From Eledone cirrhosa (taxonomy: Eukaryota), in the NCBI GenBank assembly GCA_964016885.1, contig OZ024741.1:124620001-124684000 (forward strand): a stretch of DNA of 64,000 nt. Reading direction: 5' to 3'. The notes beneath the pieces are model-generated. The model searched no databases, was not told the origin of the DNA, and saw only the letters and a list, made by a program, of their open reading frames with translations. The position numbers and the translations under genes were made by a program. This document shows, piece after piece, positions 3,471 to 63,778 of the stretch. Position 1 is the first letter of the stretch; each line of letters opens with the position of its first letter.

Positions 3471-3533
<63 letters not shown>

Positions 3534-4056: not shown

Positions 4057-4195
4057 AAGTACTCTGCCTGTTTACTGAAAATCATGAATTTTTTATTCTT
4101 ATAGAATTCTAGTAATAATCAGGATCTGATTATACATTACTAGAATTCTATAAGAATCAAACATTCATGATTTTCAGCAAACAGGCAGAGTACTT

Positions 4196-7193: not shown

Positions 7194-7225
7194 CCCTTTC
7201 TCATTTGCCCCGTTTCTCATCGAAC

Positions 7226-21735: not shown

Positions 21736-21791
<56 letters not shown>

Positions 21792-22234
21792 ATAATAATA
21801 AATTTGAAGACTAAAATCTAAAGAGTGCTCGATAGGGATAAATATATATATCTGAAGCCGAGAATCATTCGGTTTCCTAAATAAAATTTTAGTTATGACT
21901 TCAGTTATACCATAAACGTGGTTTTGTCTTTGCGTGTAATTGTTCTCAACGGTCCTCATAATGACGTATTATCTTCGTTTTTTCCGTTCATTGCCAGAGA
22001 ACGTCTCCACGAACCACCTAATAGAATATTAGTCTACGACTTCATTTATACCATAAATCTGGTTTTGTCTTTGCGTGTAATTGTTTTCACCGCTCCAAAT
22101 AATTACGTATTATATTCGTTTTTTCCGTTCTTTGCCAGGGAACGTTCCACGTACCAAAGTATGGTCTTCCTGTCTTCCTTCGGTTGCAACGTTTTTCGAA
22201 ATATTTACTTCTGCGTTCACAGATTGATTTTTTT

Positions 22235-22285
22235 AGTTTCAGAAGATCCCGTTAAGGGTGAAAGCAGCGATTCTTTGCTTAAACT
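22235..22285 (+). ncRNA. Hammerhead-like motif F4 in Penelope pLTR (non-canonical CAGAAGA core)
   Basis: Stem I AGUUU/AAACU extended by CAGAUUGA/UUAAUCUG; CAGAAGA; CCC(GUUAA)GGG; GAAA; GCA...UGC; CUU. Confidence 0.55.
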
Positions 22286-22399
22286 TTAATCTGTTATTTT
22301 AATAAATATTTGCTCTACGGTTCTTATATATTTGATATATATTTATCCTTATCGAGCCCTCTTTGGATTTTAGTCTTCAAATTTATTGTTATTACTATT

Positions 22400-27535: not shown

Positions 27536-27557
27536 CATACATATATACATACATACA

Positions 27558-27875
27558 TGATGGCTGCCCCCTCTTTATTGAGTATGGCCATTGGACGATA
27601 TACCATTATTAATAAGTATTAATTAATTCTATCGTGCAATGCCTGTGCATGAAGATATTTTTTTAAGTGAGGAAAGACTGTACACTGAGCCAATCCCACT
27701 CTCTGAGCGACAGTAGCTATAACCCGAAATGAAGAAAAGATCAACATCATCGGTAACTACTGAGCCGCAGGTTTTATATTCGAGTTATCCCAGTTTTCTG
27801 GGTTGCCTTCTTCTATAAAAATGCCCTGACAAAGGCCAGGGCTCCTTCACTCCCAGTGATTTAACCGCGCGGTAC
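27558..27875 (-). repeat. Dispersed ~320 bp repeat, inverted homologue of 47715-48030
   Basis: Colinear similarity, e.g. CTCAGTAGTTACCGATGATGTTGATCTTTTCTT and GGGTTATAGCTACTGTCGCTCAGAGAGTGGG; orientation arbitrary. Confidence 0.8.
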
Positions 27876-28959: not shown

Positions 28960-29034
28960 CGAAGGAAATGTGGTAAGGAACCAGGTGGACCATAACGCAC
29001 CAAAGTACTCAATACTTGAGGTAGTAGAGATGTA

Positions 29035-29272
29035 TATTTATTAAAATAACAGATTAAAGTTTAAGCAAAGAATCGCTGCTTTCACCCTTAACGGGATCTT
29101 CTGAAACGGGAGTTTCAGAAGATCCCGTTAAGGGTAAAAGCAGCGATTCTTTGCTTAAACTTTAATCTGTTATTTTAATAAGTATTTGCTCTACGGTTCT
29201 TATACATTTGATATATAATTATCCTTATCGAGCCCTCCTTGGATTTTAGTCTTCAAATTTATTATTATTACT
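29035..29272. mobile_element. Fold-back of Penelope pLTR 3' portion with two F4 HHR-like motifs (~29058-29107 minus, 29111-29161 plus)
   Basis: Near identical to 22235-22397; inversion centre ~29109; ends in (TA)n. Confidence 0.85.
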
Positions 29273-29293
29273 ATATATATATATATATATTTA

Positions 29294-33095: not shown

Positions 33096-35055
33096 ATGGC
33101 TGAGCCACGCCCCCAGGGATAGGTCTGCTGTCGTGCGAAAACGACGTAGAAGTTGAGAGGAGCGCTACAGCGAAATTAACACAAATTGATAACACAAACA
33201 CCACCACAAACAATGTAAACAAAAACACCAATGATACCAATGAGAAAACTAATTTTGAAAAAAAATGATAGTAACAGCGACAACGAAAATACAGATAACA
33301 AAAAAAAAAAAAATATAACAAATGCAACAGCACTATCAACACCACTAATATGAAAACAAATAGCGACAACACCAACAGCAACAATACCAACGGTGGCAAC
33401 AAAGACAACAATGATAACAGCAACACCAAAAAGAACAACGACAACGACAACACCCCCAACGAAAACAAGAAGAACCCTATCGTTGCGGCAGCAGCAAAAA
33501 AGAGGCCATGCCTCAACATGGACCTCTCAAACAAAGATGAAAAGTTGGCTTAGGCATGGAAGCTCATCAAGCAAGAGCAAACCTGCGCCAACTTAACTGT
33601 CCCGGTAGAAGCTATTGAGGCAGTGGAGCGCAGAACGGTGCATTATAGATGCATCACAGCACAAACCTAAAGGGTAGCTTTAATCCCACAAGAAGATGTC
33701 GAAGTCGCGCAGAGGTGCATCAGAGAAGACACCGAATACATAGAGAGGGGCAGACAGTACGGCACCATTTCGGTGTTGTTCAAGTCAGAAGCCCTCGCTA
33801 TGAAAGACGCTATGACTCCTTGCAAAACCAGCAAGGGCATAATGTACCCCTGCCACATGGGAAAAAGAACGGCCCGTCTCCGCATTCCCAGAATCCCACC
33901 AGGACTTGACATGTGGTGGCTTCTGGGATGTGTGATTGTGGCGGGGACGGATACCGTCTCTATAGAAGTGACCAGAACGGCCAGAGAGGACTGGTCCGGG
34001 GTTGACCTGGAGATCCTTCTCCAGATCAGGCCCGAGAATGTGAAGACAATCCCGGACCACATCCGCCTTCAGAATGGGACGGTCATTCACATTATGACCG
34101 AAGGCAAAAGGCCGCAGTGTTTTGTTTGTGGGGGAAAAACACATTTGCGAGCCTTCTGCCCTCAACTACTGAAAGAGGCAAGGGGTCGAAAGGCTCCACT
34201 GCTACCGACGCCGGGGCGAGGACCACAACCAACACCAGCACCGGCAAAACCACCAACAACAACAACACCAATAGAAATACCACCACCAACATTGACCACC
34301 CAGGGGGAAAACGAGGAAAGCTGTCAAATTCCCCTCCCCCCCCAAAATACACACACCAATAAAACCATAAACATACATACAGACACACTTACAGACACAG
34401 ACGCCTCATCTACTAGTAGTGAAAATGAGGGAAACCCAAATCCCCCAAAATACAAAAAAGGAAACACAAAAAGAAAAAAAAACTCAACAAAGCACAAAAT
34501 CACCCACAATAAAAAAATGCAGGCAACACCCACGCAAACATCTCTCCAATAACACCAACATCAACACCACCATCACCATCACCAGAATCCCCCAAACGCA
34601 AACAACCGAAACAGACGCAAGAACAAATATACACACAAACATCTGAAACCACAGACACCGCACTCACAACAAACACAGACACAACCGAAACAACACCACC
34701 AAAACCTTCAGCACCAGAGCCACGCAAACAAATAAAATCACACCAACAAAACATACAAAACTTCGTGCTCATCAGGAGGGCCAACAAGGAACTGATGGCC
34801 ATCGTAGCACGAAGTGAAAATATACAAAAAGAGGGGTAAATTTCTAAATCGAGCACATTTCGCGTGCCAAAAGATTTGGTTCTGTGCGAATGTCGATCGA
34901 ATTATTACAAAGAAATACGAGACAGCTTTCCTCGGGACGTGGGAACCCCGAACGTAAAACCAACTTCAAGACTTTTAAAGGGGTTCCCAAAAGAAACCCC
35001 ACCAACTATGGAGGTCGAACAACCCGACCTTCACAAGAGCCTGGAAGGTAGGTAA
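33096..35055 (+). pseudogene. Tx1 ORF1, disrupted
   Basis: EGKRPQCFVCGGKTHLRAFCP zinc knuckle; homologous to ORF1 of A and C; start position approximate. Confidence 0.78.
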
Positions 35056-35087
35056 ACCTTTCCTCTCTCTCTTTTTATCCTGCCAAC

Positions 35088-38000
35088 ATGGCCGTATTAA
35101 GAGTAGGATGTTTAAATGCTCGAGGCCTGGGATCGTCCTGGAAGCAGGGTCACCTGCTCAATGACCTCAGGTCTATAGAAATGGATGTAATTGCTGTCAG
35201 CGAGACCAGGATTTCCGACACCCGCGCACTAGCCCCCATTTTTGACGACTATCAGATCTTTGCATCTGTTAGCCGGTCGGGAATGGGAGGCGAGGTGGCA
35301 GTGCTGTTTAGGAAAGGCCTGGATCTCGAGGTAAGGTCGATCTTCCGGGACCCGGACGGGAAGTTGGTGGTTCTAGACGTGAACAATAACGAAGGTGGGG
35401 CCTTTAGACTGGTGGCTGTCTATGCTCCTACTGGGGCAGGACGGCGGAACTTCTTTAGACGCCTGGAAGCCTTTCTGGATACGTCTTGCCCTTTACTGTT
35501 AGCGGGGGACTGGAACAGCATCTTAGACGCACGCTGGGACTGTGTGGGAGTATCCGATAGGAGCGGGGGGTGCAAAAGCCTCAAGAACCTGATCAGCCAG
35601 TTCCAACTGTCTGACAGGTACCGACTAGATTTCCCTAATGCGCCAGTGTGGACCTGGGTTAACCGCATAGGGTCATCTAGATCGTATATAAACAGGATAT
35701 TCATTAGGAAAATAGACAGAAATAATGTAAGCTGTCCACGTTTTGAAACAGTCGCCTATTCAGATCACAAGTTTGTGATCTGTATGGTCGACCTAGATAA
35801 GACGCGTAGGTTAGGACCTGGTTACTGGAAGCTAAACATGTCATTTCCGGCACGTAAGGCTTACATGGACCAGGTCAACAATTTAGTAAAGAAAAAGTTG
35901 ACAGGGGGAGTCGTCAACTATAGATGGTGGGGCCTCTCAAAAGAGAGATTAGAGTAATGTCGATAGAGTTTAGCAAAGAAGTAGGGTTAGAGTAAAATAG
36001 AAAGGAGGGGGAGTTGGTAGATAAGTTAGACCAGACTATTGGTAGTGGCATTGCATTACGTGCTAGTGGTGAGAATGGCATTAGACCATTTCTTCAATGC
36101 GAAACACGAAGGTTGCATTGTCAGAGCTAAGGCACGTGCTCTGAGAAACGAGGGAACCAAACCTGTTCGATGGGCCCGCGTGGCAGAGGCGCAGCGTGGT
36201 AATAAAACCACGATTCGGTCTTTGATGGACCGAGACGGACACGAACTGAGCGATTCCAAGCGGATGTGTGAGGCCTTTCGCCAACATTTCGCTCGGTTGT
36301 TCGGGGGAGTGGCGGGTCAGAGATGATGGCGGACTTCAGTCCCCACATCGATGGCTTGCCGCAACTCTCGACGGCTGACGCTGGGCGCTGCGAAAGGCCA
36401 ATTACTACGGCCGAGATTCAGGACGCCCTTGTCGGCTGCATGAGGCGCAAGTCACCCGATTTGGATGGTCTGCCCTACGAGCTTTACGTAAATATGCCAG
36501 ACTTGTTCTCCAATCTCCTCGAAGCCCTCTACTGCAACTGGCAGCAAAACGGGAGTATTCCCAGTTCTGTGAGCCGGGGCGTAGTGACGCTGATGAGGAA
36601 AGACGAGAACAAGAGGGTCACATTAGACAATTTCAGGCCCATAACTCTGCTCAACACAGAGTTTAAGATTTTGGCCAGGGTGTTAGGGAAGAGGTTGGCG
36701 CTTGTTGTCGGGGATTTGGTTGGGGAGGCGCAAACTTGCGCAATCCCAACCAGGTCCATACACGACAACCTCCACCTAATGTGATACATCATAGAGAGGG
36801 TAGGGTGTAAACCTGGCTTCGGTGGGGCTCTGATCAATTTAGAACAATCGAAAGCATTCGATAGGGTCGACCATCGGTACCGGGAGGCTGTCCTCAAGGC
36901 GGCTGGCTTCTGCCCCGTCTTCAGAAGCTGGATCGCTGCAATGCACCTGCTCGATGGTCAAAATTAATGGCCACCTCTCGGAACCGTTTCAGGTCTCCCG
37001 ATCGGTCCGTCAAGGGTGCTCTCTCTCCTCCCTTCTGTACGTATTGACTCTCGAGCCTTTACTGCGAAAGCTGGAGCTGTTGCAGGGAATCCCGCTCGAA
37101 CCGAGACGCGGAAAAGCTGTGTCGGGTTATGCGGACGACCTCACCGTGATGGTGTCGGACACCTCAGAAATCGAGGTGGTCTGCAACTTATTGGAGGAAT
37201 ATGAAAGGTTGACGGGAGCAAAACTTATCCCGGAAAAATCGGTGGGCTTGCAACTCGGCACCTGGAGAGGCAAGTCGTTAGGCGCTGGACGGACGGACCG
37301 GTAAAGTTACTAGGGGTTTGGTTCGGGCCAGACCTCCAGGTGGATAAGAATTGGGACGAGGTGACGGGCAGGGTAGCCAGTCTCACCCAGGAATGGGCTG
37401 GGATGAAGCTATCTCTGAAAGGTCGGGCGGAGGTGGCGAACGCGTCCGTCATCTACTACCGTCTGACCGTCGTCCCTTTCCCCCGTTCGCGCCTCGCCAT
37501 CTTGGAGCGGCTCCTCTTCAAATTCTAGTGGAGGGGTCAGGTTCCGCTGGTGAGGCGATCCATCTGCTGCCAGTACCCTCTAGGTGGAGGGCTGGGCATG
37601 CCATGGCTAATGGTGCGCAGGCACGCGCTGAGGCTGCGGCATCTCCAGATATTCTGCCTAAACGGTGAACAGGTGTGGTCGCTGTTTGTCAGACGGGCCT
37701 TTCCTCAGCTCGTTTCTTTGACTGAGCTTCAGTCCTGGGTCAAGAAGAGACCGAGACTGGGTGACTGGCATCTGGAATGTTGCCAGGTATTCACTGTCTT
37801 CTACCAGGCGGGTAATGCGGTCAGTGGAACTTCCACTCTCGAGTTCTATAGAGCATTAGTGGTGGGCAAGTGCGACGACGCACTCGGAGAGGCTCTAGGA
37901 GTCAACGAAGTCGAACTACCAGTCTGTACCGGAGGACTTTCGAGCCGGGGACGATGGATAATTTCCAAAAATCCCTCGCTTGGCAGTGCTACCGCGGGGC

Positions 38001-38468
38001 ACTGCCGGTTCGAGATAAACTGTACAGGCACGGAAGTGCTGTCAGACGGACCTGCCCGAGATGCGCGCAGAGCGACGAAACCGTTCTTCACGCATTCGTC
38101 CAGTGTCCGTGCATTACCGACTTCTGGAGTTATGTTGAACAGCTGTTGTCGCGTGTAGAACGGATCCGGCTATCGGCCGAGTCCATAGTGAAGATCGACC
38201 GCCGCCTTCTTTTGGCCAGGAAGGGCAGGCAATTTTCCTCTGTCTGGTGGCAGTAGCGAAAGAGGTTGTATGGTGGACGAGGTTGAAAGGACTGAAGACA
38301 GACACTTTTCTCTTCGGCCAATCCCTCATCAACTTTTTCAAGTTTCACTTGGAAAGGAAGGTGAGGGTGGAGAGAGAAGTGCTTCCCCCCAGTACATTTT
38401 CTGAAAGGTGGGTGAATGTGGCGAGAATGGCCCGTGTGAGAGGGCCTACTCTGGTCATGCGGCTGTAG
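35088..38468 (+). pseudogene. Tx1 ORF2 (APE-RT), disrupted
   Basis: CLNARGL, GDWN, SDHK, YWKLN, NFRPITLLN, RQGCSLS, YADD, CPRCAQSDETVLHAFVQC. Confidence 0.92.
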
Positions 38469-38944: not shown

Positions 38945-40879
38945 ATGCCCGAACTCACAGCTGAAGCTAGTAGCTGAGAGCCTTCCTCACAAATTAACAC
39001 CTCACACCTACACCACCATTGTAAATATTACTACGTTTGCCAACACTAAAAATATAAGCATTAGCAATATTTTAAATTTGTCTCAGGCAGACATTCATTT
39101 CCCACCATTACCAGTGACTGCAGGTGTTGAAGCCGCCACCCCCACAACCACCACAACGACAACAGAAACAAAAGAAAAAAAAATTATCTCGTGATATCGA
39201 AACGAATTCAGCCAAAATGAACTGTTCCACACCGAACACCACTGACGCCACCACCACCACAACTGAAACTAAAATTAACAATAACAAAAATAACGATAAC
39301 AACAACAGCAACAATGAGAATAAGAAAACCCTGTCTTTTGCCAGAGTAGCAAAGAAGTGGGAAGCATTCCAGATAGCTCAGGAGGAATTAGAAGAAGCCA
39401 AAAAAATGGTAAAGAAAGATGGGTACAGGGTCACACACACACACACCTAATAAAATGGAGCATCGGCGCCTATGCACCGTGTCTTATCGGACGATTAACA
39501 TAAAACCGCGCCGAGTGGAACGGGCATCCGAGTCCCAAATCCAAAAAGCTTTGGGACATGTGTGGGCAAAAAAAAAACACATCAGACGTGGGCAGAAATA
39601 TGGAACCGTGGACGTGTTCTTTGAAACACCACAGGAGGCCAGAGAACACTCCCTGGACCCATTAAGAAGTGACGACTTCACACTCGTCCCAAGCTATTGT
39701 GGCCAGAGACTCGTGAAGATCAGGGTGACCCATGTTCCACCGGCCATCGAAATTCCCTGGTTATGGCTGCCGTCCTCGCCGGCATCGAAGCCTACACCAA
39801 GATAATCGAAATAGCGAGAGAAAAGCAGGAGAACTGGTCCCGGATCTGGGATGGAGCTCCTGATCCAAGCGAACCAAAAAAGCATTGAGGAGATCCCAGA
39901 GGTAATAGACCTCACTGACGGCAGCCACCTCACCGTAATCGTCGAGGGCAGAAGGCCTAGGTGTGTCGTTTGTGGTGAAGGAACCCACCTAATGGCTTTC
40001 TGCCCTCAGGCTAAAAGGTTGAGGCCACCTCTCTTACCCACCCCAGTGTCTCAACCATCAACACAACCAGCAGCAGAAATGGCAGCAACAACTGTAGCAG
40101 CAACAACAGAAACAACTGTAACAGCAACAACCCCAGCAACAGTAGCAAAACCAACACCACCCCCCACCCAGCGCGCCAGAACTAGCACCAGGGCCTACAC
40201 CATCTACCACGCCATAACCAAAACCAACGCCTGTGGAGGATTTTCCACTCCCCGACCTATCGCAACTGGAGACAGATTGTGACGACAAGGAGTGGGAAAC
40301 CATATCAGAAAAAAAGAAAAAAAGAAAAAGAAACCAAAAAAGAAAAAATCCCCTTCCTTCCCCCTCCAAGAACAAAATACAGAGGGAAACAAATAAACTA
40401 TCAAACAAAAAAGTTAGGACAGCTATGCCACCATCCACACCAGCATCACCAACCCCATCACTACAAACACCAACACCATCACCATCATTAACCCCAACAC
40501 CACCATCACCAACACCACAAAAGTCACCAAAAAGCGAAACAGAAACAAACCCACAACAACGCAAACAAAACAAAACAACCAAAACGATAAAAACTACACA
40601 GCAATAAATTTGAACAACAACCAATTATTACACTACATCCAACACAACACCAGCATCACAGAAAAAGACTACACAACAACCCAAAAGTTCACACCACCTC
40701 CACACATACAAATCACTCACATCACACAGAAAACGTACACGACACTAAAAAAAAATTCCCTAAAGACATCGGAGACTTCCGACACGCACTCTCCAGGAGG
40801 ATTTATAAGGACATCCTTCCGCAGGAGGCCAGAAGCTGTGAAAAGGATGGATAAACCATCCTTCCTCTACGAGAAGTAA
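38945..40879 (+). pseudogene. Tx1 ORF1, disrupted
   Basis: TVSYRT..RVERASESQIQKALG..KYGTVDVFF; EGRRPRCVVCGEGTHLMAFCP; start position approximate. Confidence 0.78.
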
Positions 40880-40917
40880 GGTAAGTGGTCTTTCCCATCT
40901 TTTGCACTCCATTTCAA

Positions 40918-43900
40918 CATAACCTCACTCAGAATAGGCAGCATGAATGCGCGTGGCTTGGGGTCGTCATGAGCAGGGCAACCTGCTCAACGACCTCAGG
41001 TCAGTAAACATAGATGTAGTGGCCATCAGCGAGACCAGAATCTCCGAAGCACGGGCCTTCGCACCGATCATCGGCGGCTACGATGTGTACGCATCTCCCA
41101 GCCGTCCAGGATCGGCGTGAGGACTTACTGTGCTTTTTCGGAGAGGTTTGGATCTCGCCATACGGGCCATCTTCCTGGACCCAGAGGGTAAGTTGGTGGT
41201 GCTGAACGTGACCAGCGGAGAAGGGCAAGCTTTCAGGCTAGTGGCCGTCTATGCCCCGACAGGAGCAGGGCGGCCTGATTTCTTCCGGCGTCTGGAGACC
41301 TTTCTTGGTACGTCCCGCTCTTTAGTGTTAGTTGGCGACTGGAACAGGATATTAGATACACGCCGGGACTGTGTGGGATTAGCGGATAGGGGAGGAGGGT
41401 GCAAGAGCCTCACCAACCTGCTCAGGCGTTTTGAACTGTCTGACAGGTACCGATTGGATTTCCCGAATGTGCCAATGTGGACGTGGACAAACCGCATAGG
41501 GTCATCCAGATTATATCTAGATAGAGTATTTTGTAGGGAAATAGATAGGTCTAGTATAGGCTGTCCGCAATTCAAGATAGTCAGCTACACGGACCACAAA
41601 TTCGTGATCTGTGTGCTTGACTTAGATAGGCTTCATAGACGAGGACCCGGCTACTGGAAGCTAAACGCGTCCTTACCAGCGCGCAAGGCCTACAGAGACC
41701 GGATTAGCGAATTAGTTAAGCGGACATTGACGGGGGGCCATCGTCAACAACAAGTGGTGGTTTGCTCTTAAAAGAGCGATTAGAATAGAGACCATAGGTT
41801 TAGTAAGGCTTTAGAAATAGAGAAAAATAGAGCAGAGGGAGAACTAGTTAGAAAATTAGACGAGGCGCTTAGCAAAGGCATCACGACCGACGTACTTGCG
41901 GCGAAATTGGCCCTTGACCAATTCTTCAATGCAAAGCACGAAGGCTGCGTTATCAGAGCTAGGGTGCGTGCTTTCAGACACGAGGGGACGAAAGCCTTTC
42001 AATGGGCCCGAGTTGCAGAGGCACGTCGTGGTAACAAAGCCACGATCACGTCTTTGGTGGACCACGACGGGCGCATGCTACTCGATCCCGGGCAAATGTG
42101 TGAAGCTTTTCAGCGACACTTCGCACAGCTGTTCGGGGCAGCGGCGGACCGGATCGAGGGATGGACTTTAGTGTCTACCTCGACGGACTGCCGTGGCTCT
42201 CGGCCACTGAGGCAGAGTGTTGAGAAAAGCCGATAACAGCCGCTGAAGTACGGGAGGCAATGACTGGCTGCACAAGGGGTAAATCTCCTGGTTTTAATAG
42301 TCTGCCCTATCAACTTTACGTACACATGCCAGACCTGTTCGGAGGCCTCTTGGCGGACGTCTACTGCATCTGGCAACAGAATGGGAGAATTCCCAGCTCT
42401 CTGAGCCGAGGAGCGGTGGCGCTGCTGAGAAAGGATCCGAACAAGGGGGATAACATACATAATTTTAGTCCCATAACTCTGCTAAACACCGAGTTCAAGA
42501 TTTTGGCCAAGGTGCTAGCAAAGAGGTTGGCACTTGTCGTTGGTGCTCTGGTGGGAGAGGGGCAGACATGCGCCATTACAGACAGATCCATGCTCGACAA
42601 CCTCCACCTCATGCGATACTTCGTAGAGAGGGTAGCTAGGGAACCTGGCACGGTTGGGTCCTTGATCAATTTAGATCAATCGAAAGCTTTCGGTAGGGTC
42701 GACCATCGTTACCTAGCGGCAGTCCTGAGGGCGGCTGGCTTTTGGCCCGTCTTCAGAGGCTGGGTTGCTGCCATGCACAGCGACATCTGCTCTGTGGTGA
42801 GAGTGAACCGTCACCTTTCGGAGCCGTTCAACATCATGCGCTCGGTCCGCCAAGGATGTTCCCTCTCATCCCTCTTGTACGTATTGACTCTCGAGCCATT
42901 ACTGCACAAACTGGAGACGGTGAGGGGGGTCCCGCGCGAACTAGGATGCGGAAGATCCGTGTCAGCATATGCGTACGATGTCACCGTAGTTGTGTCAAAC
43001 GCCAAACACATCGAGGCGATCGGCACTACTCTAAGAGAATACGAAGCGGCGACAGGAGCAATGATCAACCAAGAGAAGTCAGTGGGCCTGCAGGTAGGAA
43101 CCTGAAGAGGCAGGTCCATGCCGTCCAACAGCGTGACGAGCAGGGTGGCTTCTCTCACCCAGAAATGGGCGGAAAGGAAGCTATCCCTGAAAGGTCGAGC
43201 AGAGGTGGCTAACGCGTACATCGCGTCCGTCATCTATTACTGCTTGACCGTCGTACCTTGTCCTCAACCCCGCCTGACTGCGCTGGAGCGTTTCCTCTTT
43301 CGCTTTTTGTGGAAGGGACGCGCTCCGATGGTCAGGCGGTCCATCTGCTGTCAACACCCGCTACGTGGAGGGCTGGGCATGCCGTGGCTGATGATGCGCA
43401 GACACGCGCTCTGACTACGACATCTCCACCTCTTCTTCGACGGTGCTCAGGTGTGGTCGACGTTTGCTAGACGCGTCTTCCCCAGCTCGTCTCCTTCACG
43501 GAGCTGCAGTCTTGGGTCAAGCGAAGACCGAGAGGGAGCGCTTGGAGACTGGAATGTTTTCAGGCGCTCACAGCCCTCGACCAATCGGGCAATGTGATCG
43601 GTGGAAGCTCCACCTTGGCGTTCTATAGAGGATTAGTGGAGGGGAAGAGCGACGACGTACTTGGGGAACCTCTACGCGTCGACGAATATCAACTAGCCAA
43701 TCTCTTCGGAAGAACTTTCGGGCCGAGGCCTATGGACAACTTCCAGAAATCCCTGGCCTGGCAGTGCTACCGAGGAGCTTTGCCAGTTCGGGATAAACTC
43801 TACAGGCATGGAGCTGCCGTCAGCCGGGCATGTCCGAGATGCGCGCAGAGGACGAAACCGTGTTGCACGCACTCGTCCAGTGTCCGAGCATTGCTGACTT

Positions 43901-44229
43901 GTGGATTTATGTCGAACACCTGCTGTCGCGTGTAGGACGAGTTCATCGTGAGGATTGCCCCGCCCTCTCCCTTTAGCCGGGAATGGCAGGCAGTTTTTAT
44001 CTGTCTGGTGGCCATGACGAAAGAGATAGTATGGTGGACACGTTTGAAAGGGCTGAAGACGAGCACTTACCTATTCGGTGATACCCTCATTGACTTTTTC
44101 AAATTTCATTTGAAAAGGAAAATCAAAGTAGAGAGGGAAGTGCTCTCTTCCCAGCATTTTGTTGAAAGATGGGTGAGAGAAGCAAGAATGGCCCGAGTGA
44201 ATGGGCCTACTCTGAGTACGTATCTGTAA
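40918..44229 (+). pseudogene. Tx1 ORF2 (APE-RT), disrupted
   Basis: GDWN, YLDR, TDHK, YWKLN, RQGCSLS; catalytic YADD mutated to YAYD; very similar to copy A ORF2. Confidence 0.92.
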
Positions 44230-47446: not shown

Positions 47447-47574
<128 letters not shown>

Positions 47575-47714
47575 ACTCATAAGAGTCAACAGCCATCCAA
47601 AAGTGTGTAAATATGTATATACACATGTACATATGTATGTATATGTGTATATACATGGGTGCATGTGTATGTATATGTGCGGGGTCATAGAAATAGTCGG
47701 GCTAGACACCCGAT

Positions 47715-48030
47715 AGCGCGGTTAAACCAATAGGAGTGAAGGACCCCTAGCCTCTGTCACGACCCTCTTCAAGGAGAAAGCAACTCAGGAAACTGGGATA
47801 GCTCCGATATAAAACTTGCAGCTCAGTAGTTACCGATGATGTTGATCTTTTCTTGTTTTTGGGTTATAGCTACTGTCGCTCAGAGAGTGGGTTTGGCTCA
47901 GTGCACAGTCTTTCCTCACTTTAAAATATATCTTCACGCACAGTCATTTCAAGATAGAATTAATTAATAATTATTAGTAATGTTATATCGTGTAATGCCC
48001 ATACTTGATAACGAGGCGGCAGCCATCATC
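47715..48030 (+). repeat. Dispersed ~320 bp repeat, homologue of 27558-27875
   Basis: Colinear inverted similarity. Confidence 0.8.
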
Positions 48031-48207
48031 TATCAATCTATATATATAGAAAAGAAATCAGAAATAAGATTTCACTTCAAGCATAGCTTTATACAAATAT
48101 GTATAGAAATTTCGTATTTCAAAAGAAACACGGTTTTAGGAAGCCGTAGCTATGCTAACACCCGGGCTAACGCCCTCTGGTGGTTTCCAGCAGAAGCAAG
48201 GGGAACA

Positions 48208-48251
48208 ACCGTCTATGCATTTCAGGCTTGACTGGCCTTCTTCAGGGCGGT
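48208..48251 (-). ncRNA. Minimal type I hammerhead motif, family F6
   Basis: ACCGCC-CUGAAGA-AGGC(CAGUCAA)GCCU-GAAA-UGCA-UA-GACGGU; one stem I mismatch. Confidence 0.75.
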
Positions 48252-48316
48252 CCGTCTCACCGCTTGCGACTGCTGGACTTGAAAACACTCGAGAATATAT
48301 AGTTTATCGTCTGTGA

Positions 48317-48351
<35 letters not shown>

Positions 48352-48355: not shown

Positions 48356-48775
48356 GAGGTTATATTTAATTTGTTGGGATTCAACAAGCTTAAAATGTTG
48401 TATAACTGATATAAAGCACTCAACAGTTTAGTTGAGTAAATACACAATATATTAATAAATGGAAACTATATTTATAAAACCATATTTATTTTATTATATA
48501 TATTTCAAGGGCAACCAAGGCAAATTATAGTGCGCTTTCATCAGATAAAATACAGATTTGTTTTATAAATAAATATTGACATACCCGGAAAAAAAAGGAA
48601 GCTCCAACCGTCAAGGTTGTCTTTTTTTTCGGGTATGTCAATAATTATTTATAAAACAAATCTGTATTTTATCTGATGAAAGCGTACCATAATTTGCCTT
48701 GGTTGCCCTTGAAATATATATAATAAAATAAATATGGTTTTATAAATATAGTTTCCATTTATTAATATATTGAAT
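48352..48775. mobile_element. (TA)n-flanked fold-back HHR element, family F7 (HHR 48487-48552 minus, 48665-48730 plus)
   Basis: Inverted arms 48445-48595 / 48620-48772; UAUUUUAU-CUGAUGA-AAG...CUU-GAAA-UAUAUA-UA-AUAAAAUA. Confidence 0.85.
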
Positions 48776-50344: not shown

Positions 50345-50892
<548 letters not shown>

Positions 50893-52335: not shown

Positions 52336-52397
<62 letters not shown>

Positions 52398-53471
52398 AAC
52401 GAGTAGGACCCCGACGGCTGAGCTCAAGCCGTTTCGACGGCTAATTCTGGACTAAATGAAAATTTTTATCCTGGTATTTGAATAGCCGAGCTTCTCAAGG
52501 GGTAATTCCATATATGGTCAAAGTGATTGTCACAGGGATAGGTCAAAATTTAGTAGTTGAGACATAATAATTCTATGATGGCAATTAGTGGAGGGAAGGG
52601 GTAGCTAAACCTGCCAGTAGGAGAAAGAGGGAGAGGGGTGGAGGAGACCTATTCATGCGTTGATAGTGCCGGCTACAGCTGGGCGTGAGGTCAAAAAAGA
52701 TACTAGGGAGGGGGAGGTGGAGGAAGTCGAAACAGTAAGTAGAACAATGAGGGGTAAATATATAGAAAAATACTGAGAGTGTTAAAAAGCAATTAAATGT
52801 AAAAAAAAAAAAATCTGGTTACTACGACCTAAGTCTCTCACTATTGCTAGGCTAAAGAAATATACTAGGTGGGACGGATTTAAAATGAGACCCTTTTAAG
52901 AGGTATAAGTAAATAAACCGAGTATATCTTACGGAGACGGGTCAACAAGTAGGGGCCAAAATACTAAAGAGACTACCACGAAATAATAAAAGTTTCTACC
53001 CCAACCACAAGGCCAGCAACCACCCAGTGCAAAAAAGTAAACTAATACGAAATAATAATTCAGAGTCCCGATAAAGAATACTAATACTATCTCTAAGGGT
53101 GGCGCCACGATACAAAAGTTCTAGTGCAAGCGACATAAAAGCTCGTACGAAGTGAAAGTAAAATTTGATACGGAAAATTAATTATCCGACCGCTGCCCCT
53201 TTTCCGTGCTTTCTATATCTCTTAGTGGCATCTTTGCTTTAATTTCTCGTTTATCAGTATTTTTTTTTTGGGGGGGGGGGGGGGGGTGATTCTGAATTAA
53301 TTTTCCGCATCAATTTTTACTTTTACTTTATACACACACAGAATTAGCCGTCGAAACGGCTTGAGCTCAGCCGTCGGGGTCCTACTCGTTCCTATTACCC
53401 ACTCTACTACCCTAAGTATTGAGTACTTTGGTGCATTATGGTCCACCTGGTACCTTACCACATTTCTTCCG

Positions 53472-53507
<36 letters not shown>

Positions 53508-53717
53508 GAAATCCCAGAAACCTATCGAAAATCTTATGGATTATTTTGGATTCATGTCCACTCGTGTTTAACCTGTTTGTAAGAATAGATGTGTTATTGT
53601 AGCAATATGATTATGTCACAATTATTGAACTATTTGTGTTCGCTCTGGGTAGAAATATACCAATTCCTCACTCAATGAATGCGTCGTGACTGCCTCTTAC
53701 AATTCGATAGACATTTG

Positions 53718-53796
<79 letters not shown>

Positions 53797-53798
<2 letters not shown>

Positions 53799-54128
53799 CA
53801 AACGGGATATTTAATTTGTTGGTAATTTAACAAATATAAATGTTTATAACTGCACTCGACAAGTTTTCTGGAGTATAATATTCAATGATATTTCTATCCA
53901 GGAAACAATGAACCGTTAAGAACTTGTTCCTGGTTATGTCAATATTTATAAAACAAACTTTGTATTTCATCTGAAACTATATTTATAAAACCATATTTAT
54001 TCTATTATATATATTTTTTAAGGGTACCAAAACTTTGGTACGCTCTCATCAGATAAAATACAAACTTTGTATTATAAATTTTGACATAACCGAGAAAAGA
54101 TACCTTAACGGTTCTGGTTTTCCTTGGA
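53797..54128 (-). mobile_element. F7-family element with degenerate HHR (GAAA mutated); copies at ~59782-60113 and 63882-64000
   Basis: Homology to 48352-48600 and 50466-50640. Confidence 0.72.
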
Positions 54129-54372
54129 TATATGTATATATATATATATATATATATAGTTAAAAATGTACATCCACATATGTATACTGAAATACTAGTA
54201 TGCATATGAATACACACACGTGTACATATGTAGATGTACCGAGTTTTTCACTGGACACTTTACTGTGAGTGTTCAGCTATTCTGTATGTAAACACACAGA
54301 CAAACCGGTTTTTAGAGTCATACTGGTTTTCGAGGAAACACCTTTCCTCTATTCTCCAGAAAGCCAGACAGG

Positions 54373-54417
54373 AATATTGGACTAGTTTCGATGTTGTTAC
54401 ATCTCATCAGCAATATT
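54373..54417 (-). ncRNA. Canonical minimal type I hammerhead F10
   Basis: AAUAUUG-CUGAUGA-GAUGU(AACA)ACAUC-GAAA-CUAG-UC-CAAUAUU. Confidence 0.93.
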
Positions 54418-54841
54418 TACCTATCCTCCGGCCTTTCTAGAGAATCGTAAAAGCACATATCGTTATATGCTTTTTCTATGAAAATTAGTAGTGGGCAGAC
54501 CAATTTGCATAGAGCGTGAGTACGTACCGGTTCAGCGGAGACGATAAAAACAAATAACGAAACGAAATTAAATTTCGTTTCGTTTGTAACTAACTTTTGT
54601 ATGACTGACGCTTAAACAATTAAGTTAAAAATGTACATCCACATATGTATACTGAAATACTAGTATGCATATGAATACACACACGTGTACATATGTCGAT
54701 GTACCGAGTTTTTCACTGGACCGCTGAACCGGTACGTACTCACGCTCTATGCAAATTGGTCTGCCCACTACTAATTTTCATAGAAAAAGCATATAACGAT
54801 ATGTGCTTTTACGATTCTCCATAAAGGCCGGAGGATAGGTA

Positions 54842-54886
54842 AATATTGCTGATGAGATGTAACAACATCGAAACTAGTCCAATATT
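54842..54886 (+). ncRNA. Canonical minimal type I hammerhead F10
   Basis: Same sequence as 54373-54417; GUC cleavage triplet. Confidence 0.93.
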
Positions 54887-55306
54887 CCTGTCTGGCTTTC
54901 TGGAGCATAGAGGAAAGGTGTTTCCTCGAAAACCAGTATGACTCTAAAAACCGGTTTGTCTGTGTGTTTACATACAGAATAGCTGAACACTCACAGTCAA
55001 GTGTCCAGTGAAAAACTCGGTACATCGACATATGTACACGTGTGTGTATTCATATGCATACTAGTATTTCAGTATACATATGTGGATGTACATTTTTAAC
55101 TCAATTGTTTAAGCGTCAGTCATACAAAAGTGAGTTACAAACGAAACGAAATTTAATTTCGTTTCGTTATTTGTTTTTATCGTCTCCGCTAAACCGGTAC
55201 GTACTCACGCTCTATGCAAATTGGTCTGCCCACTACTAATTTTCATAGAAAAAGCATATAACGATATGTGCTTTTACGATTCTCTAGAAAGGCCGGAGGA
55301 TAGGTA

Positions 55307-55351
55307 AATATTGCTGATGAGATGTAACAACATCGAAACTAGTCCAATATT
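55307..55351 (+). ncRNA. Canonical minimal type I hammerhead F10
   Basis: Same sequence; 465 nt downstream of previous copy. Confidence 0.93.
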
Positions 55352-55787
55352 CCTGTCTGGCTTTCTGGAGAATAGAGGAAAGGTGTTTCCTCGAAAACCA
55401 GTATGACTCTAAAAACCGGTTTGTCTGTGTGTTTACATACAGAATAGCTGAACACTCACAGTAAAGTGTCCAGTGAAAAACTCGGTACATCTACATATGT
55501 ACACGTGTGTGTATTCATATGCATACTAGTATTTCACTATACATATGTGGATGTACATTATTAACTTAATTGTTTAAGCGTCAGTCATACAAAAGTGAGT
55601 TACAAACGAAACGAAATTTAATTTCGTTTCGTTATTTGTTTTTATATATATATATATATAAATGTATATATAGTATATTTGACAATATGCCGTATGTTTG
55701 GAATTCGAGCTTTGATACCAACATCAGTACTTCACTGAACCACCAACACCATATATACATACACATATATATATATATATATATATG

Positions 55788-56340
55788 TTAGGATTGGTGC
55801 TTTGAAATAACCACGTATACCTGAATGTATGTATAGTATATTTGGCAACATACCGTATGTTTAATTAAAAACATTTTGAAGACCTTGTGCTATCATTTTT
55901 AGAGTAGTGACTGTGTCACTTTGTTCTTTTTTCGGCAAAGAAAGGGAGAGAAGCTGACAGATTCTATTTCACACTGTTGGTGATACTCAGAGCAACGCAC
56001 TCGCTATTTCAGAGAACCAATCCTAATCTTTAATGTTTGCTGGACTGACAATCTCTCTGTATAATCAGTTCATGCTTATTACAGGAATTATATAAGAATC
56101 CAGCTTTTATAATCTTCGGCTTAGGCGGAGAATACGTTGCTCTGAGTATCACCAACAGTGTGAAACAGAATCTGTCAGCTTCTCTCCCTTCCTTTGCCGA
56201 AAAAAGAAGTAAGTGACATAGTCACTACTTTAAAAATGATAGCACAAGGTCTTCAAAATGTTTTTAATTAAACATACGGTATGTTGCCAAATATACTATA
56301 CATACATTCAGGTATACATCGCTATTTCAGAGCACCAATC

Positions 56341-56345
<5 letters not shown>
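55788..56345. mobile_element. Fold-back element related to F3 with altered HHR core (CUGAGUA); duplicate at ~60272-60828
   Basis: Homologous to 3531-4370; HHR-like 55952-55993 (minus) and 56139-56180 (plus): GCU-CUGAGUA-UCAC(CAACA)GUGU-GAAA-CAGAAUCUG-UC-AGC. Confidence 0.78.
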
Positions 56346-56409
<64 letters not shown>

Positions 56410-56759
56410 ATATATGGTGTTGGTGGTTCAGTGAAGTACTGATGTTGGTATCAAAGCCATAATTCCAAACAGAGGCAGAGCGTATATATTAGAGATAACG
56501 AGGAAGTTTCGGTTACATGTATATGATATTTATTGCGTATCGGCCTTTTGCCTATGGGTGTCCTTGAGCCAATCCTTTGTGAAACGCATGTGACAGGTCG
56601 ATGCACAATAGATATCATATACATATAAACGAAACTTCCTTAGCGTGAACCTAATATAACTGTGTTCAATTGCTTCCTGTGGTTTGTTCTTTCATTTTCA
56701 ACTTTATATATACTCATATATTATATATATATATGTATATATTATTTATACACACACAG

Positions 56760-56847
<88 letters not shown>

Positions 56848-56988
56848 AACGAGGTGTGGTAAGGAACCAGGTGGACCATAACGCACCAGAGTACTCGATA
56901 CTTAGGGTAGTAGAGTGGGTAATAGGAAAATAGTCTGACCTAGCTGTGAAACGGCTGGTGCTTAGCCGTTGGGATCCTGAATGTTTCC

Positions 56989-57045
<57 letters not shown>

Positions 57046-57172
57046 AACGAGGTGTGGTAAGGAACCAGGTGGACCATAACGCACCAGAGTACTCGATACT
57101 TGGTAATAGGAAAATAGTCTGACCTAGCTGTGAAACGGCTGCTGCTTAGCCGTTGGGATCCTGAATTCTTCC

Positions 57173-57237
<65 letters not shown>

Positions 57238-57364
57238 AACGAGGTGTGGTAAGGAACCAGGTGGACCATAACGCACCAGAGTACTCGATACTTGGTAATA
57301 AGAAAATAGTCTGACCTAGCTGTGAAACGGCTGGTGCTCAGCCGTTGGAGTCCTGAATTTTTCC

Positions 57365-57400
<36 letters not shown>

Positions 57401-57444
57401 TGAAAATATTTTTGGCTTGTATTGGCCGATAGTGCTTCTTATAG

Positions 57445-57498
57445 CTTTAATTGCCCTGATGAGTCCTTAATAGGACGAAACATTGTTGGCTAATAAAG
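57445..57498 (+). ncRNA. Type I hammerhead motif F11 in a ~240 bp (TA)n-flanked element
   Basis: CUUUA..GCC-CUGAUGA-GUCCU(UAAU)AGGAC-GAAA-CAUUG-UU-GGC..UAAAG. Confidence 0.85.
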
Positions 57499-57639
57499 AC
57501 TTTTGATGTATTGAAGGCTTCTTTGTTTTATTTTCATAATTCTTCGGCTCTGTTTAATTACATTGAGCTATACCTTTACTGTCATTTCTATAATACGAAG
57601 AGGGTGTTTAACTCCAACACACTCTAGTATTTTAATTCT

Positions 57640-57722
<83 letters not shown>

Positions 57723-58332
57723 AGTATATATAAAGTAATAAATAGATAAATGTATTCACTCTAAATGTTTTTATGTGTGCGGGGGAAGTGCGATCATTAC
57801 TTTTGTAAGAGGATTTATTTGTATTTAGTTCAGAAAATATTAATTTCCACCAGTTTCTGACTTGTTTCACATCTAATTTATCGCCATCATAACTATATTA
57901 CGACAAGAGTCTGCTTCCAACTGGTATTGTAGCTGCAAAATAATGAGATATTAAATCTATATTAGATTCCATGTCTCCAACATAAATTACCTGCAGGAAC
58001 GTGAAATAAAACGTTTAGAAAGCAACATACACAAAAACAGATATATCTACAGTCAAATACGTAATAAGCACAGATATATCCCGAACAGCACACAGACACG
58101 TTCAGAACCACACAGTCATTCACAAATACTCAGATAAACACAATCACGAACTCACAGTCATACAAAAAAGAAGCGTAACAGACACTGTATTTGATGCAGA
58201 CGGACCAGAAACAATATTAATTGTCAAATACAACAGTCTGTATAAAATATATAAAAGTTCATCTTTTATGAGCTATTTACACTATCGTAACAATTTTAAT
58301 AGTACTTAAATTAAGGATAATAATAATTATTA

Positions 58333-58541
58333 TTTCTACTTTAGGCACAAGGCCGGCAATTTGAAGGGGAGCGGAAAGTCGATGAAATTGATCCCAGTGC
58401 CTACTGGTATTTTATTCTATCAACTCCGTAAGGATGAAAGGCAGAGCTTACCTCGGCGGGATTTGAACTCAGAACGTAAATGGCTTTAACTCTATGCTGT
58501 AAAGCATGTTGTTCGCCGTTCTAACAATACTTCCAATCCAC
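58333..58541 (-). mobile_element. tRNA-derived SINE, with further SINE fragments at ~58553-58745
   Basis: Reverse complement of the SINE family (GGATTTGAACTCAG; GGCACAAGGCC). Confidence 0.8.
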
Positions 58542-59675
58542 TTAATAATGATTTCTAGTATAGGTACAAGGCCAGTAATTTGGGCGTGAGCGACATATAT
58601 CGACCTCCGAAGGATGAAAGGCAACGTTGACCGCGGTGGACTTCCTACTTCCAGTGCTCATATCAAAACAACGTCAAATTTACCTTTCATCCGTTCAGGG
58701 AGTCAATCAAATAAAGTACCAGTAATGCTCTGGGATCAATTTAATCGACGTTTGTAATAGAAAAATAATCACCAATATAGCAAATGCAAGAAAAAATACA
58801 GTTACATGGGCAGTTCCACAGATATACCAAGGATGTGATAAATGTCGAACCAGAGTCACAAAGAAGGAACTGAAGAGGTTTTTGGTTGTTTCTCATAATA
58901 AAATACTCAGTAATAATTCCCAGTTGATATTTATTACACAGATTCACTAACTAATTATAGGATATATTAAATTGCTTCCTCTATAAAAAATATATGCAAC
59001 ATGATAATTTCTGGTTCAATTTTTACTGGCTGGTATGTAAAACAATCGGATATAAAACACTAGTGGTACAATCATATACCAGAAAAAACTTTGTGTATAT
59101 CGCTATGTCGGAGCACCAGTATAAATTTAATAAATCATTTGAATTGAAATTTCTAAGAAACTTTAATATCCTGGCTGTTAGAATAATTGAATGTCATAAA
59201 GCAAATAACATTATTCATAGTGAATATTTCATAACAGAAGTTAAAATTCCTTCTGAATTAATTTTCCGTATCAATTTTTACTTTTACTTCATACACACAC
59301 AGAATTAGCCGTCGAAACGGCTTGAGCTCAGCCGTCGGGGTCCTACTCGTTCCTATTACCCACTCTACTACCTTAAGTATTGAGTACTTTGGTGCGTTAT
59401 GGTCCAACTGGTTCCTTACCAGATTTCTTCCGTTATATATATATATATATATATATATATTCGAAATCCCAGAAATCTATTGAAAATCTTATGGATTATT
59501 TTGGATTCATGTCCACTCGTGTTTAACCTGTTTGTAAGAATAGATGTGTTATTGTAGCAATATGATTATGTCACATTAATTGAACTATTTGTGTTCGCTC
59601 TGGGTAGAAATATAACAATTCCTCACTCAATGAATGCGTCGTGACTGCCTCTTACAATTCGATAGACATTTGCTG

Positions 59676-59783
<108 letters not shown>

Positions 59784-60112
59784 CAAACGGGATATTTAAT
59801 TTGTTGGTAATTTAACAAATATAAATGTTTATAACTGCACTCGACAAGTTTTCTGGAGTATAATATTCAATGATATTTCTATCCAGGAAACAATGAACCG
59901 TTAAGAACTTGTTCCTGGTTATGTCAATATTTATAAAACAAACTTTGTATTTCATCTGAAACTATATTTATAAAACCATATTTATTCTATTATATATATT
60001 TTTTAAGGGCACCAAAACTTTGGTACGCTTTCATCAGATAAAATACAAACTTTGTATTATAAATGTTGCAATAACCGAGAAAAGATACCTTAACGGTTCA
60101 AGTTTTCCTTGG

Positions 60113-60143
<31 letters not shown>

Positions 60144-60824
60144 TGTATGTATAGTATATTATATTTGGCAATATACCGTATGTTTGGAATTCGAGCTTTG
60201 ATACCAACATCAGTACTTCACTGAACCACCAACACCATATATACATACACATATATATATAAATATATATGTTAGGATTGGTGCTTTGAAATAACCACGT
60301 ATACCTGAATGTATGTATAGTATATTTGGCAACATACCGTATGTTTAATTAAAAACATTTTGAAGACCTTGTGCTATCATTTTTAGAGTAGTGACTATGT
60401 CAATTTGTTCTTTTTTCGGCAAAGAAAGGGAGAGAAGCTGACAGATTCTATTTCACACTGTTGGTGATACTCAGAGCAACGCACTCGCTATTTCAGAGAA
60501 CCAATCCTAATCTTTAATGTTTGCTGGACTGACAATCTCTCTGTATAATCAGTTCCTGCTTATTACAGGAATTATATAAGAATCCAGCTTTTATAATCTT
60601 CGGCTTAGGCGGAGAATACGTTGCTCTGAGTATCACCAACAGTGTGAAACAGAATCTGTCAGCTTCTCTCCCTTCCTTTGCCGAAAAAAGAAGTAAGTGA
60701 CATAGTCACTACTTTAAAAATGATAGCGCAAGCTCTTCAAAATGTTTTTAATTAAACATACGGTATGTTGCCAAATATACTATACATACATTCAGGTATA
60801 CATCGCTATTTCAGAGCACCAATC

Positions 60825-60884
<60 letters not shown>

Positions 60885-61242
60885 TATATGTATATATGGT
60901 GTTGGTGGTTCAGTGAAGTACTGATGTTGGTATCAAAGCCATAATTCCAAACAGAGGCAGAGCGTATATATTAGAGATAACGAGGAAGTTTCGGTTACAT
61001 GTATATGATATTTATTGCGTATCGGCCTTTTGCCTATGGGTGTCCTTGAGCCAATCCTTTGTGAAACGCATGTGACAGGTCGATGCACAATAGATATCAT
61101 ATACATATAAACGAAACTTCCTTAGCGTGAACCTAATATAACTGTGTTCAATTGCTTCCTGTGGTTTGTTCTTTCATTTTCAACTTTATATATACTCATA
61201 TATTATATATATATGTATATATTATTTACACACACGCAGACG

Positions 61243-61323
<81 letters not shown>

Positions 61324-61448
61324 AACCAGGTGTGGTAAGGAACCAGGTGGACCATAACGCACCAGAGTACTCGATACTTGGTAATAGGAAAATAGTCTGA
61401 CCTAGCTGTGAAACGGCTGGTGCTCAGCCGTTGGAGTCCTGAATTTTT

Positions 61449-61493
<45 letters not shown>

Positions 61494-61532
61494 AAAAGTT
61501 TGGCTTGTATTGGCCGATAGTGCTTCTTATAG

Positions 61533-61586
61533 CTTTAATTGCCCTGATGAGTCCTCAATAGGACGAAACATTGTTGGCTAAAAAAG
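61533..61586 (+). ncRNA. Hammerhead F11, duplicate in second tandem unit
   Basis: Same core and stems; loop II is CAAU instead of UAAU. Confidence 0.85.
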
Positions 61587-61726
61587 ACTTTTGATGTATT
61601 GAAGGCTTCTTTGTTTTATTTTCATATTCTTCGGCTCTGTTTAATTACATTGAGCTATACCTTTACTGTCATTTCTATAATACGAAGAGGGTGTTTAACT
61701 CCAACACACTCTAGTATTTTAATTCT

Positions 61727-61829
<103 letters not shown>

Positions 61830-62439
61830 AGTATATATAAAGTAATAAATAGATAAATGTATTCACTCTAAATGTTTTTATGTGTGCGGAGGAAGTGCGA
61901 TCATATTTTTTGTAAGAGGATTTATTTGTATTTAGTTCAGAAAATATTAATTTCCACCAGTTTCTGACTTGTTTCACATCTAATTTATCGCCATCATAAC
62001 TATATTACGACAAGAGTCTGCTTCCAACTGGTATTGTAGCTGCAAAATAATGAGATATTAAATCTATATTAGATTCCATGTCTCCAACATAAATTAACTG
62101 CAGGAACGTGAAATAAAACGTTTAGAAAGCAACATACACAAAAACAGATATATCTGCAGTCAAATACATAATAAGCACAGATATATCCCGAACAGCAGAC
62201 AGACACGTTCAGAACCACACAGTCATTCACAAATACTCAGATAAACACAATCACGAACTCACAGTCATACAAAAAAGAAGCGTAACAGACACTGTATTTG
62301 ATGCAGACGGACCAGAAACAATATTAATTGTCAAATACAAGAGTCTGTATAAAATATATAAAAGTTCATCTTTTATGAGCTATTTACACTATCGTAACAA
62401 TTTTAATAGTACTTAAATTAAGGATAATAATAATTATTA

Positions 62440-62648
62440 TTTCTACTTTAGGCACAAGGCCGGCAATTTGAAGGGGAGCGGAAAGTCGATGAAATTGATC
62501 CCAGTGCCTACTGGTATTTTATTCTATCAACTCCGTAAGGATGAAAGGTAGAGCTTACCTCGGCGGGATTTGAACTCAGAACGTAAATGGCTTTAACTCT
62601 ATGCTGTAAAGCATGTTGTTCGCCGTTCTAACAATACTGCCAATCCAC
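62440..62648 (-). mobile_element. tRNA-derived SINE (duplicate of 58333-58541)
   Basis: Offset 4107 within tandem duplication. Confidence 0.8.
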
Positions 62649-63778
62649 TTAATAATGATTTCTAGTATAGGTACAAGGCCAGTAATTTGGGCGTGAGCGA
62701 CATATATCGACCTCCGAAGGATGAAAGGCAACGTTGACCGCGGTGGACTTCCTACTTCCAGTGCTCATATCAAAACAACGTCAAATTTACCTTTCATCCG
62801 TTCAGGGAGTCAATCAAATAAAGTACCAGTAATGCTCTGGGATCAATTTAATCGACGTTTGTAATAGAAAAATAATCACCAATATAGCAAATGCAAGAAA
62901 AAATACAGTTACATGGGCAGTTCCACAGATATACCAAGGATGTGATAAATGTCGAACCAGAGTCACAAAGAAGGAACTGAAGAGGTTTTTGGTTGTTTCT
63001 CATAATAAAATACTCAGTAATAATTCCCAGTTGATATTTATTACACAGATTCACTAACTAATTATAGGATATATTAAATTGCTTCCTCTATAAAATATAT
63101 ATGCAACATGATAATTTCTGGTTCAATTTTTACTGGCTGGTATGTAAAACAATCGGATATAAAACACTAGTGGTACAATCATATACCAGAAAAAACTTTG
63201 TGTATATCGCTATGTCGGAGCACCAGTATAAATTTAATAAATCATTTGAATTGAAATTTCTAAGAAACTTTAATATCCTGGCTGTTAGAATAATTGAATG
63301 TCATAAAGCAAATAACATTATTCATAGTGAATATTTCATAACAGAAGTTAAAATTCCTTCTGAATTAATTTTCCGTATCAATTTTTACTTTTACTTCATA
63401 CACACACAGAATTAGCCGTCGAAACGGCTTGAGCTCAGCCGTCGGGGTCCTACTCGTTCCTATTACCCACTCTACTACCTTAAGTATTGAGTACTTTGGT
63501 GCGTTATGGTCCAACTGGTTCCTTACCAGATTTCTTCCGTTATATATATATATATATATATATTCGAAATCCCAGAAATCTATTGAAAATCTTATGGATT
63601 ATTTTGGATTCATGTCCACTCGTGTTTAACCTGTTTGTAAGAATAGATGTGTTATTGTAGCAATATGATTATGTCACATTAATTGAACTATTTGTGTTCG
63701 CTCTGGGTAGAAATATAACAATTCCTCACTCAATGAATGCGTCGTGACTGCCTCTTACAATTCGATAGACATTTGCTG

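Follow-up and report, generated by a model that had tools for sequence, protein, structure and literature searches.

Non-LTR retrozymes of animals have been described, in the parts of the two reports drawn on here, as high-copy non-coding tandem repeats that have one type I hammerhead ribozyme per unit, a GC content below 50% and self-paired monomers (PMC7229834; 10.64898/2026.07.22.740005). The enzyme and the RNA form behind their movement were proposed rather than shown (PMC7229834, in the sections used), and the mechanism is said to remain to be elucidated (10.64898/2026.07.22.740005, likewise in part). Insertions of Penelope-like elements (PLEs) are described in the relevant portions of one study as partial tandems that include a 5'-truncated copy in inverted orientation and may have a 30- to 40-nt tail at one end, with (TA)n targeting in the Hydra, Neptune and Naiad clades; how such tandem and inverted insertions form was named there as an open task (PMC8557442). 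According to the passages cited from another study, a PLE protein nicks and extends both target strands, using RNA that is uncleaved and starting at two sites in its interior (PMC11167929).

We analyzed a window of 64,000 nt from Eledone cirrhosa, by which we mean the whole stretch of DNA under study, and found a 465-nt non-coding unit arranged at 54158-55645 as 1.21 units on the minus strand and 1.99 units on the plus strand, back to back. This arrangement matches the preliminary description, which had claimed about 1.2 minus and about 2 plus seamless units; the unit copies proved to be 98 to 99% identical. The element lies within (TA)n, with a left target tract at 54128-54157 and a right one at 55646-55661, so that no target-site duplication can be resolved; where retrozymes have one, it is longer than 4 bp. 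With phase 1 of the unit set at 54721, the minus arm (54158-54721, 564 nt) runs through phases 283 to 465 (54721-54539) and 1 to 381 (54538-54158), and the plus arm (54721-55645, 925 nt) through phases 1 to 465 and 1 to 460. At the head-to-head joint (54721) the 5' ends of the arms overlap by 1 nt, and each 3' end borders directly on (TA)n. In phase, the outer ends of the arms are 79 nt apart, where about 80 nt had been claimed, and the read-through of the unit junction that had been proposed for both arms is seen as a passage from phase 465 to phase 1 in each. Arms and units of the insertion differ at 10 phases. The layout is that of a pure tandem without an LTR pair around an internal region. 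No ORF was found in 54158-55645, and the longest ATG frames of the circularized unit were of 61 aa (plus) and 70 aa (minus).

Three identical type I hammerhead cores are present in the element (54849 and 55314 on the plus strand, 465 nt apart, and 54410 on the minus strand). The complete motifs span 54831-54901 and 55296-55366 (plus), with predicted cuts between 54879 and 54880 and between 55344 and 55345, and 54358-54428 (minus), with a predicted cut between 54380 and 54379. In the unit this predicted cut falls between phases 159 and 160, and both arms read through it. Helix I is formed by 7 bp with an extension, helix II by 4 to 5 bp and helix III by 1 bp with a palindromic loop. The hammerhead had been called perfect, which is right for the intact core and goes too far for helix III with its single pair. 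Alignment to the Rfam family HH9 covered the full model (positions 1-77) with all pairs kept, scoring 34.2 bits (E 2.2e-5) against a gathering score of 52, and at the gathering level Rfam returned no match for the element.

A one-pair helix III with a palindromic tetraloop is also found in the axolotl motif HHR_Amex1, and this similar motif showed 6% cleavage as a monomer and much better cleavage as a dimer (PMC7229834, in the part cited). The canonical metazoan hammerhead type is likewise described, in the part of the source used, as needing a second copy for good cleavage (PMC4209133). The minimal hammerhead of PLEs, as given in the same part, has a helix II of 7 to 8 bp, a helix I of 4 to 5 bp and an extra nucleotide before stem II (PMC4209133), whereas the 465-nt unit has canonical metazoan helix sizes and lacks the extra nucleotide. 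In ViennaRNA, helices I and II were supported and the helix III of a double hammerhead had a probability of only 0.00 to 0.02; the double-hammerhead fold, being disfavored, was set aside. The predicted cut-to-cut monomer (54880-55344, plus strand, 465 nt, 37% GC) would be stably self-paired, with a fold of -147.9 kcal/mol and z scores of -8.46 (linear) and -9.7 (circular).

Judged by these sequence features, all of which it shares with the described metazoan elements, the element would be a further family of the known animal non-LTR retrozymes. Its unit length is slightly above the range of 150 to 450 bp given in one account (PMC7229834, part cited) and inside the 51 to 972 bp of the other (10.64898/2026.07.22.740005, part cited). 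It differs in its back-to-back arms and (TA)n target, which are not described in the cited parts of either report; the supplements of both may already list related families or layouts. These two traits are shared with PLEs carrying an endonuclease (EN+; Hydra, Neptune and Naiad, PMC8557442) and with the Anolis Poseidon element PAc (PMC11167929), in which, as far as the cited parts describe them, a partial tandem with an inverted 5' copy, (TA)n, two different outer ends and a hammerhead that is read through also occur. Unlike EN+ PLEs, the element lacks an ORF for reverse transcriptase (RT) or endonuclease, and its end offset of 79 nt exceeds the 30- to 40-nt tail. On its sequence it is thus apparently not a coding PLE but would insert like one. 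We did not find the hammerhead stem II motif in the single supplementary file of PMC8557442 that was searched. A literature search on octopus and cephalopod hammerheads and retrozymes and on Penelope twin priming gave no description of the 465-nt family among the matches listed.

Twin priming of L1 elements also yields two cDNAs, which are primed on both strands of the target and fused head to head at microhomology. The element at 54158-55645 differs from its products in having no poly(A) tail and no resolvable target duplication and in its multi-unit non-coding template.

The element resides in the first copy of a host tandem on the plus strand. Copy 1 (53290-59250) comprises about 4.1 kb, the element and two extra 192-nt units; copy 2 occupies 59251-63357, and copy 3 starts at 63358, with its equivalent of the insertion site beyond the window. 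At the paralogous site of copy 2 (60113-60140) we found plain (TA)n, as had been claimed, and a retrozyme-type tandem that occupies one paralogous site but is missing from the following one supports the proposed recent mobility. Over 4064 aligned nucleotides there are 52 differences between copies 1 and 2, and the rate is raised in the flanks of the element (10/134 nt over 54025-54128 and 55661-55690, against 42/3930 nt elsewhere). Between copies 2 and 3 the difference is 1/643 nt, so the base accuracy of the assembly is high. Insertion into copy 1, which lies at the edge, is a simpler reading than loss from the others. The divergence of the arms does not decide between the two: four private changes were counted, where 7.2 would be expected for an element dating from the host duplication (P = 0.15).

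Sequencing runs X1, X2, X24 and X4 were compared over 53800-56340. Part of the unit was contained in 20 of the 24 runs listed (16 studies, 17 organism labels), none of these 20 being an RNA run. In X1 (organism A) the summed contig depth over the element was 19,000 to 283,000 per bin, which is not a copy number; the locus-specific contig at 55968-56164 had a depth of 19 to 27 in the same run, and the 465-nt family is therefore very abundant. The 26-nt hammerhead pattern had no match in metagenome, prokaryote-genome and viral contigs. For the 17 organism labels, close relatives, contamination and transfer are all possible sources. X4 was the only run from outside organism A that was compared, and the sister run of its sample has none of the unit's words, which makes contamination possible; we claim no horizontal transfer. 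In X4 the unit forms one 495-nt contig of 465 nt plus a 30-nt terminal overlap, with 11 differences (∼97 to 98% identity). This contig confirms the monomer length; since a DNA tandem gives the same loop as an RNA circle would, we rejected it as evidence for the latter. Seven listed X4 substitutions were set against the folded monomer: three keep a pair, three are unpaired and one breaks a pair, with no compensatory double change among them.

The runs also bear on the ends of the unit. Loose (TA)n letters at 54544, corresponding to phase 460, occurred in seven X1 contigs with an agreement of 0.92 (among the 18 of >900 loose ends listed), and phase 460 is also the right end of the studied copy. 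This recurrence weakens the variable phase that had been claimed. No recurrence of phase 381 was seen among the same 18, and other end phases may be common among the >900. Because the end at phase 460 recurs, the X4 contig begins at phase 461 (one contig, coordinates as read by the analyst) and the first base of the plus arm is 5 nt away from this point, the sequences suggest a natural boundary between phases 460 and 461, unrelated to the predicted cut site. The unit in this likely natural phase, from 461 to 460, would be 55181-55645 (plus strand), ending just 3' of a 13-bp hairpin. Restriction-site-associated (RAD) fragments at 54502-54569 span phases 435 to 37 and had 329 to 366 molecules at their ends, compared with 180 to 630 for the fragment over phases 383 to 433; given this abundance, the head-to-tail joint of units is common in genomic DNA. 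Piles of read beginnings and ends in X24 at 54502, 54569, 55103 and 55153 were rejected as element ends, as they are AATT restriction sites.

The explanation that we favor, with a probability of roughly 0.55, is that the locus holds a high-copy non-coding non-LTR retrozyme with a type I hammerhead, inserted in trans by the RT-endonuclease of a (TA)n-targeting PLE that primed on both nicked strands and copied an RNA with at least two non-identical units. A tandem source copy would first be transcribed. Because helix III is minimal, cleavage would need two hammerheads and be incomplete, so that a two-unit RNA, either linear or a dimer circle, would persist. The PLE protein would then nick both (TA)n strands, and reverse transcription would start internally, at phases 460 and 381. 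Both cDNAs would pass the hammerhead site into the upstream unit, and their growing ends would finally be joined at 54721.

The most diagnostic feature, which the preliminary description left unused, is that the arms lie back to back within (TA)n, an arrangement indicative of a PLE enzyme. Among the (TA)n-bounded segments in the window, inverted arms were found in 12 of 27 non-redundant segments, compared with 6 of 108 controls. Since we found no homology between the 465-nt unit and the local PLE (22430-24520), only the class of the helper is proposed. The offset between outer ends, longer here than the PLE tail, is 35 nt in a second two-armed family of the window, with a unit of 319 nt. That excess over the tail speaks against the favored explanation, as does the low probability of helix III in the double hammerhead.

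The evidence for a two-unit template comes from the differences among units. At phase 307 the inner unit of both arms has G, and both outer units, X4 and X24 have T, so that the G common to the inner units appears to be the derived base. Five further changes (phases 6, 100, 102, 186 and 278) occur in no unit but the inner plus one, which by the listed X4 differences is derived for certain at four of these five phases, and the two outer units are identical over phases 1 to 282. As the inner units of both arms share the base at phase 307 and the five changes are confined to the inner plus unit, an RNA template with two non-identical units fits the insertion better than one monomer circle. The same pattern could also result if the inverted arms had undergone gene conversion, or if additional mutations had hit the 281-nt spacer; arm-to-arm conversion was disfavored only at p = 0.03 (post hoc, 11 changes).

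The same retrozyme and the same PLE-type two-sided priming could instead have used one 465-nt monomer circle as template, with all unit differences arising after insertion, a scenario that we consider rather unlikely. In its favor, both arms cross the cut site, the fold of the monomer is stable whether linear or circular, retrozymes of coral, mussel and axolotl yield circles (PMC7229834, in the part cited) and the X4 contig closes on itself at unit length, as a DNA tandem would also make it do. Counted from phase 460, the plus arm moreover stops at most 5 nt away from two complete turns (chance about 0.02), a nearly whole number that suits a circle and equally a full-length copy of a dimeric source. 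For this scenario, phase 307 must have changed in parallel in the two arms (p = 0.03) and five changes must have clustered in one unit (p = 0.04), unless the arms were converted. A simulation of one template with uniform later mutation gave a joint p = 0.001 (post hoc, 11 changes, one locus), and the recurrent end at phase 460 argues against a free phase. The proposal in the preliminary description that one monomer circle was copied by rolling circle is weakened by this patterning of unit differences across both arms. Monomer circles may also form, as in other retrozymes, but the insertion studied here seems not to have been copied from one.

Returning to the two-unit template, we advance as a tentative reading, less likely than not, that the locus records how a Penelope-type enzyme used a single multi-unit RNA, at two fixed sites of it, to prime from both strands where (TA)n was broken. 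If true, this would explain how the inverted and tandem structures of PLEs form, and retrozymes could spread via uncleaved dimers and not, as the published model has it, via monomer circles. Whether the template was a circle or a dimer can be tested simply, genome-wide, by unit haplotypes that are mirrored between the arms. In itself the 465-nt element is an ordinary representative of its class; its added value lies in this unit-haplotype test and in the 460/461 boundary.

We regard it as improbable that the units are no more than pLTRs, the 3' ends of a coding PLE, truncated on their 5' side and stacked in partial tandem, and that they have no existence independent of the coding element. Such an origin would account for the fixed 3' end at phase 460 and for the plus arm starting 5 nt from phase 461. 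The exact start of the X4 contig at 461 is also what a graph branch to other upstream sequence would give. In addition, pLTR-only pieces of another PLE lie in (TA)n within the window, and Li et al. derive retrozymes from pLTRs (10.64898/2026.07.22.740005, in the part cited). However, the 460/461 joint is seamless in both arms, in X4 and in the RAD fragments, where independent truncations would vary; the element has no ORF, and its hammerhead has canonical helix sizes rather than those of the minimal PLE type (PMC4209133, in the part cited). A pLTR origin as such is compatible with the two-unit retrozyme explanation, and only the absence of an independent life sets the two apart.

A DNA-level product (a satellite unit with local inverted duplication) or an assembly error is highly improbable. 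In its favor, independent reads did not span the joints in the runs compared, both flank joints lying in sequence masked as repetitive; the base shared at phase 307 would equally follow if the minus arm were a copy of 55003-55566; and the divergence of host copies is raised beside the site. Against it, arms and units differ as a collapsed or duplicated read would not, host copies 2 and 3 attest to high base accuracy, and the same layout is found in the unrelated 319-nt family at 3532-4366.

That second element is likewise two-armed and bounded by (TA)n, with 1.9 copies of its unit on the minus strand and 0.8 on the plus strand. In all three of its hammerhead-like cores, C3 and G8 are replaced by U3 and A8, and helix III is longer. 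Such a swap occurs naturally in hammerheads; a literature search on it found no paper. About 80% related to this family are nested palindromic TA-bounded elements at 55695-56471 and 60181-60953, with broken hammerhead cores at 56142 and 60626. An abundant TA-bounded palindromic family (48445-48772, 50466-50807, 53895-54130 and 52240) has hammerhead-like cores with a long helix II, and in the copy that flanks the 465-nt element the core is in the opposite geometry. Within the host tandem, a 249-nt segment bounded by TA has a single canonical type I hammerhead, found at 57456 and again at 61544 (plus strand; Rfam Hammerhead_1, 29.1 and 26.1 bits). Short repeats of 131 to 152 nt separated by (TA)n occur at 56844-57371, 52396-52449 and 53339-53472. 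A 753-nt TA-bounded segment at 47566-48318, partly repeated at 27538-27870, has a hammerhead-like core at 48245 (minus strand); a weak nhmmer match at 47833-47610 (E 0.005) was rejected as driven by low complexity.

A decayed Penelope-like ORF lies at 22430-24520 (plus strand), together with 21739-22400. By eye it has Hydra-clade-like motifs (DKT, YRDDG, a cysteine linker, plus GIY-YIG at the C terminus), and it is 33 to 43% identical to six database proteins. Neither for the fragment nor for its homologues did Pfam return an informative family. An inverted copy of the pLTR end of this PLE adjoins (TA)n, and the pLTR end recurs at (TA)n three times. Pieces consisting of its pLTR only, 93 to 96% identical and with the same final base before (TA)n, are found at 29034-29274 and 584-652; the one at 29 kb has two arms, each containing a degenerate hammerhead core. 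The window further contains three decayed LINEs with an endonuclease/RT layout (5340-10600, 33670-38450 and 39800-44200) and another RT-bearing LINE on the minus strand at 11117-14308.
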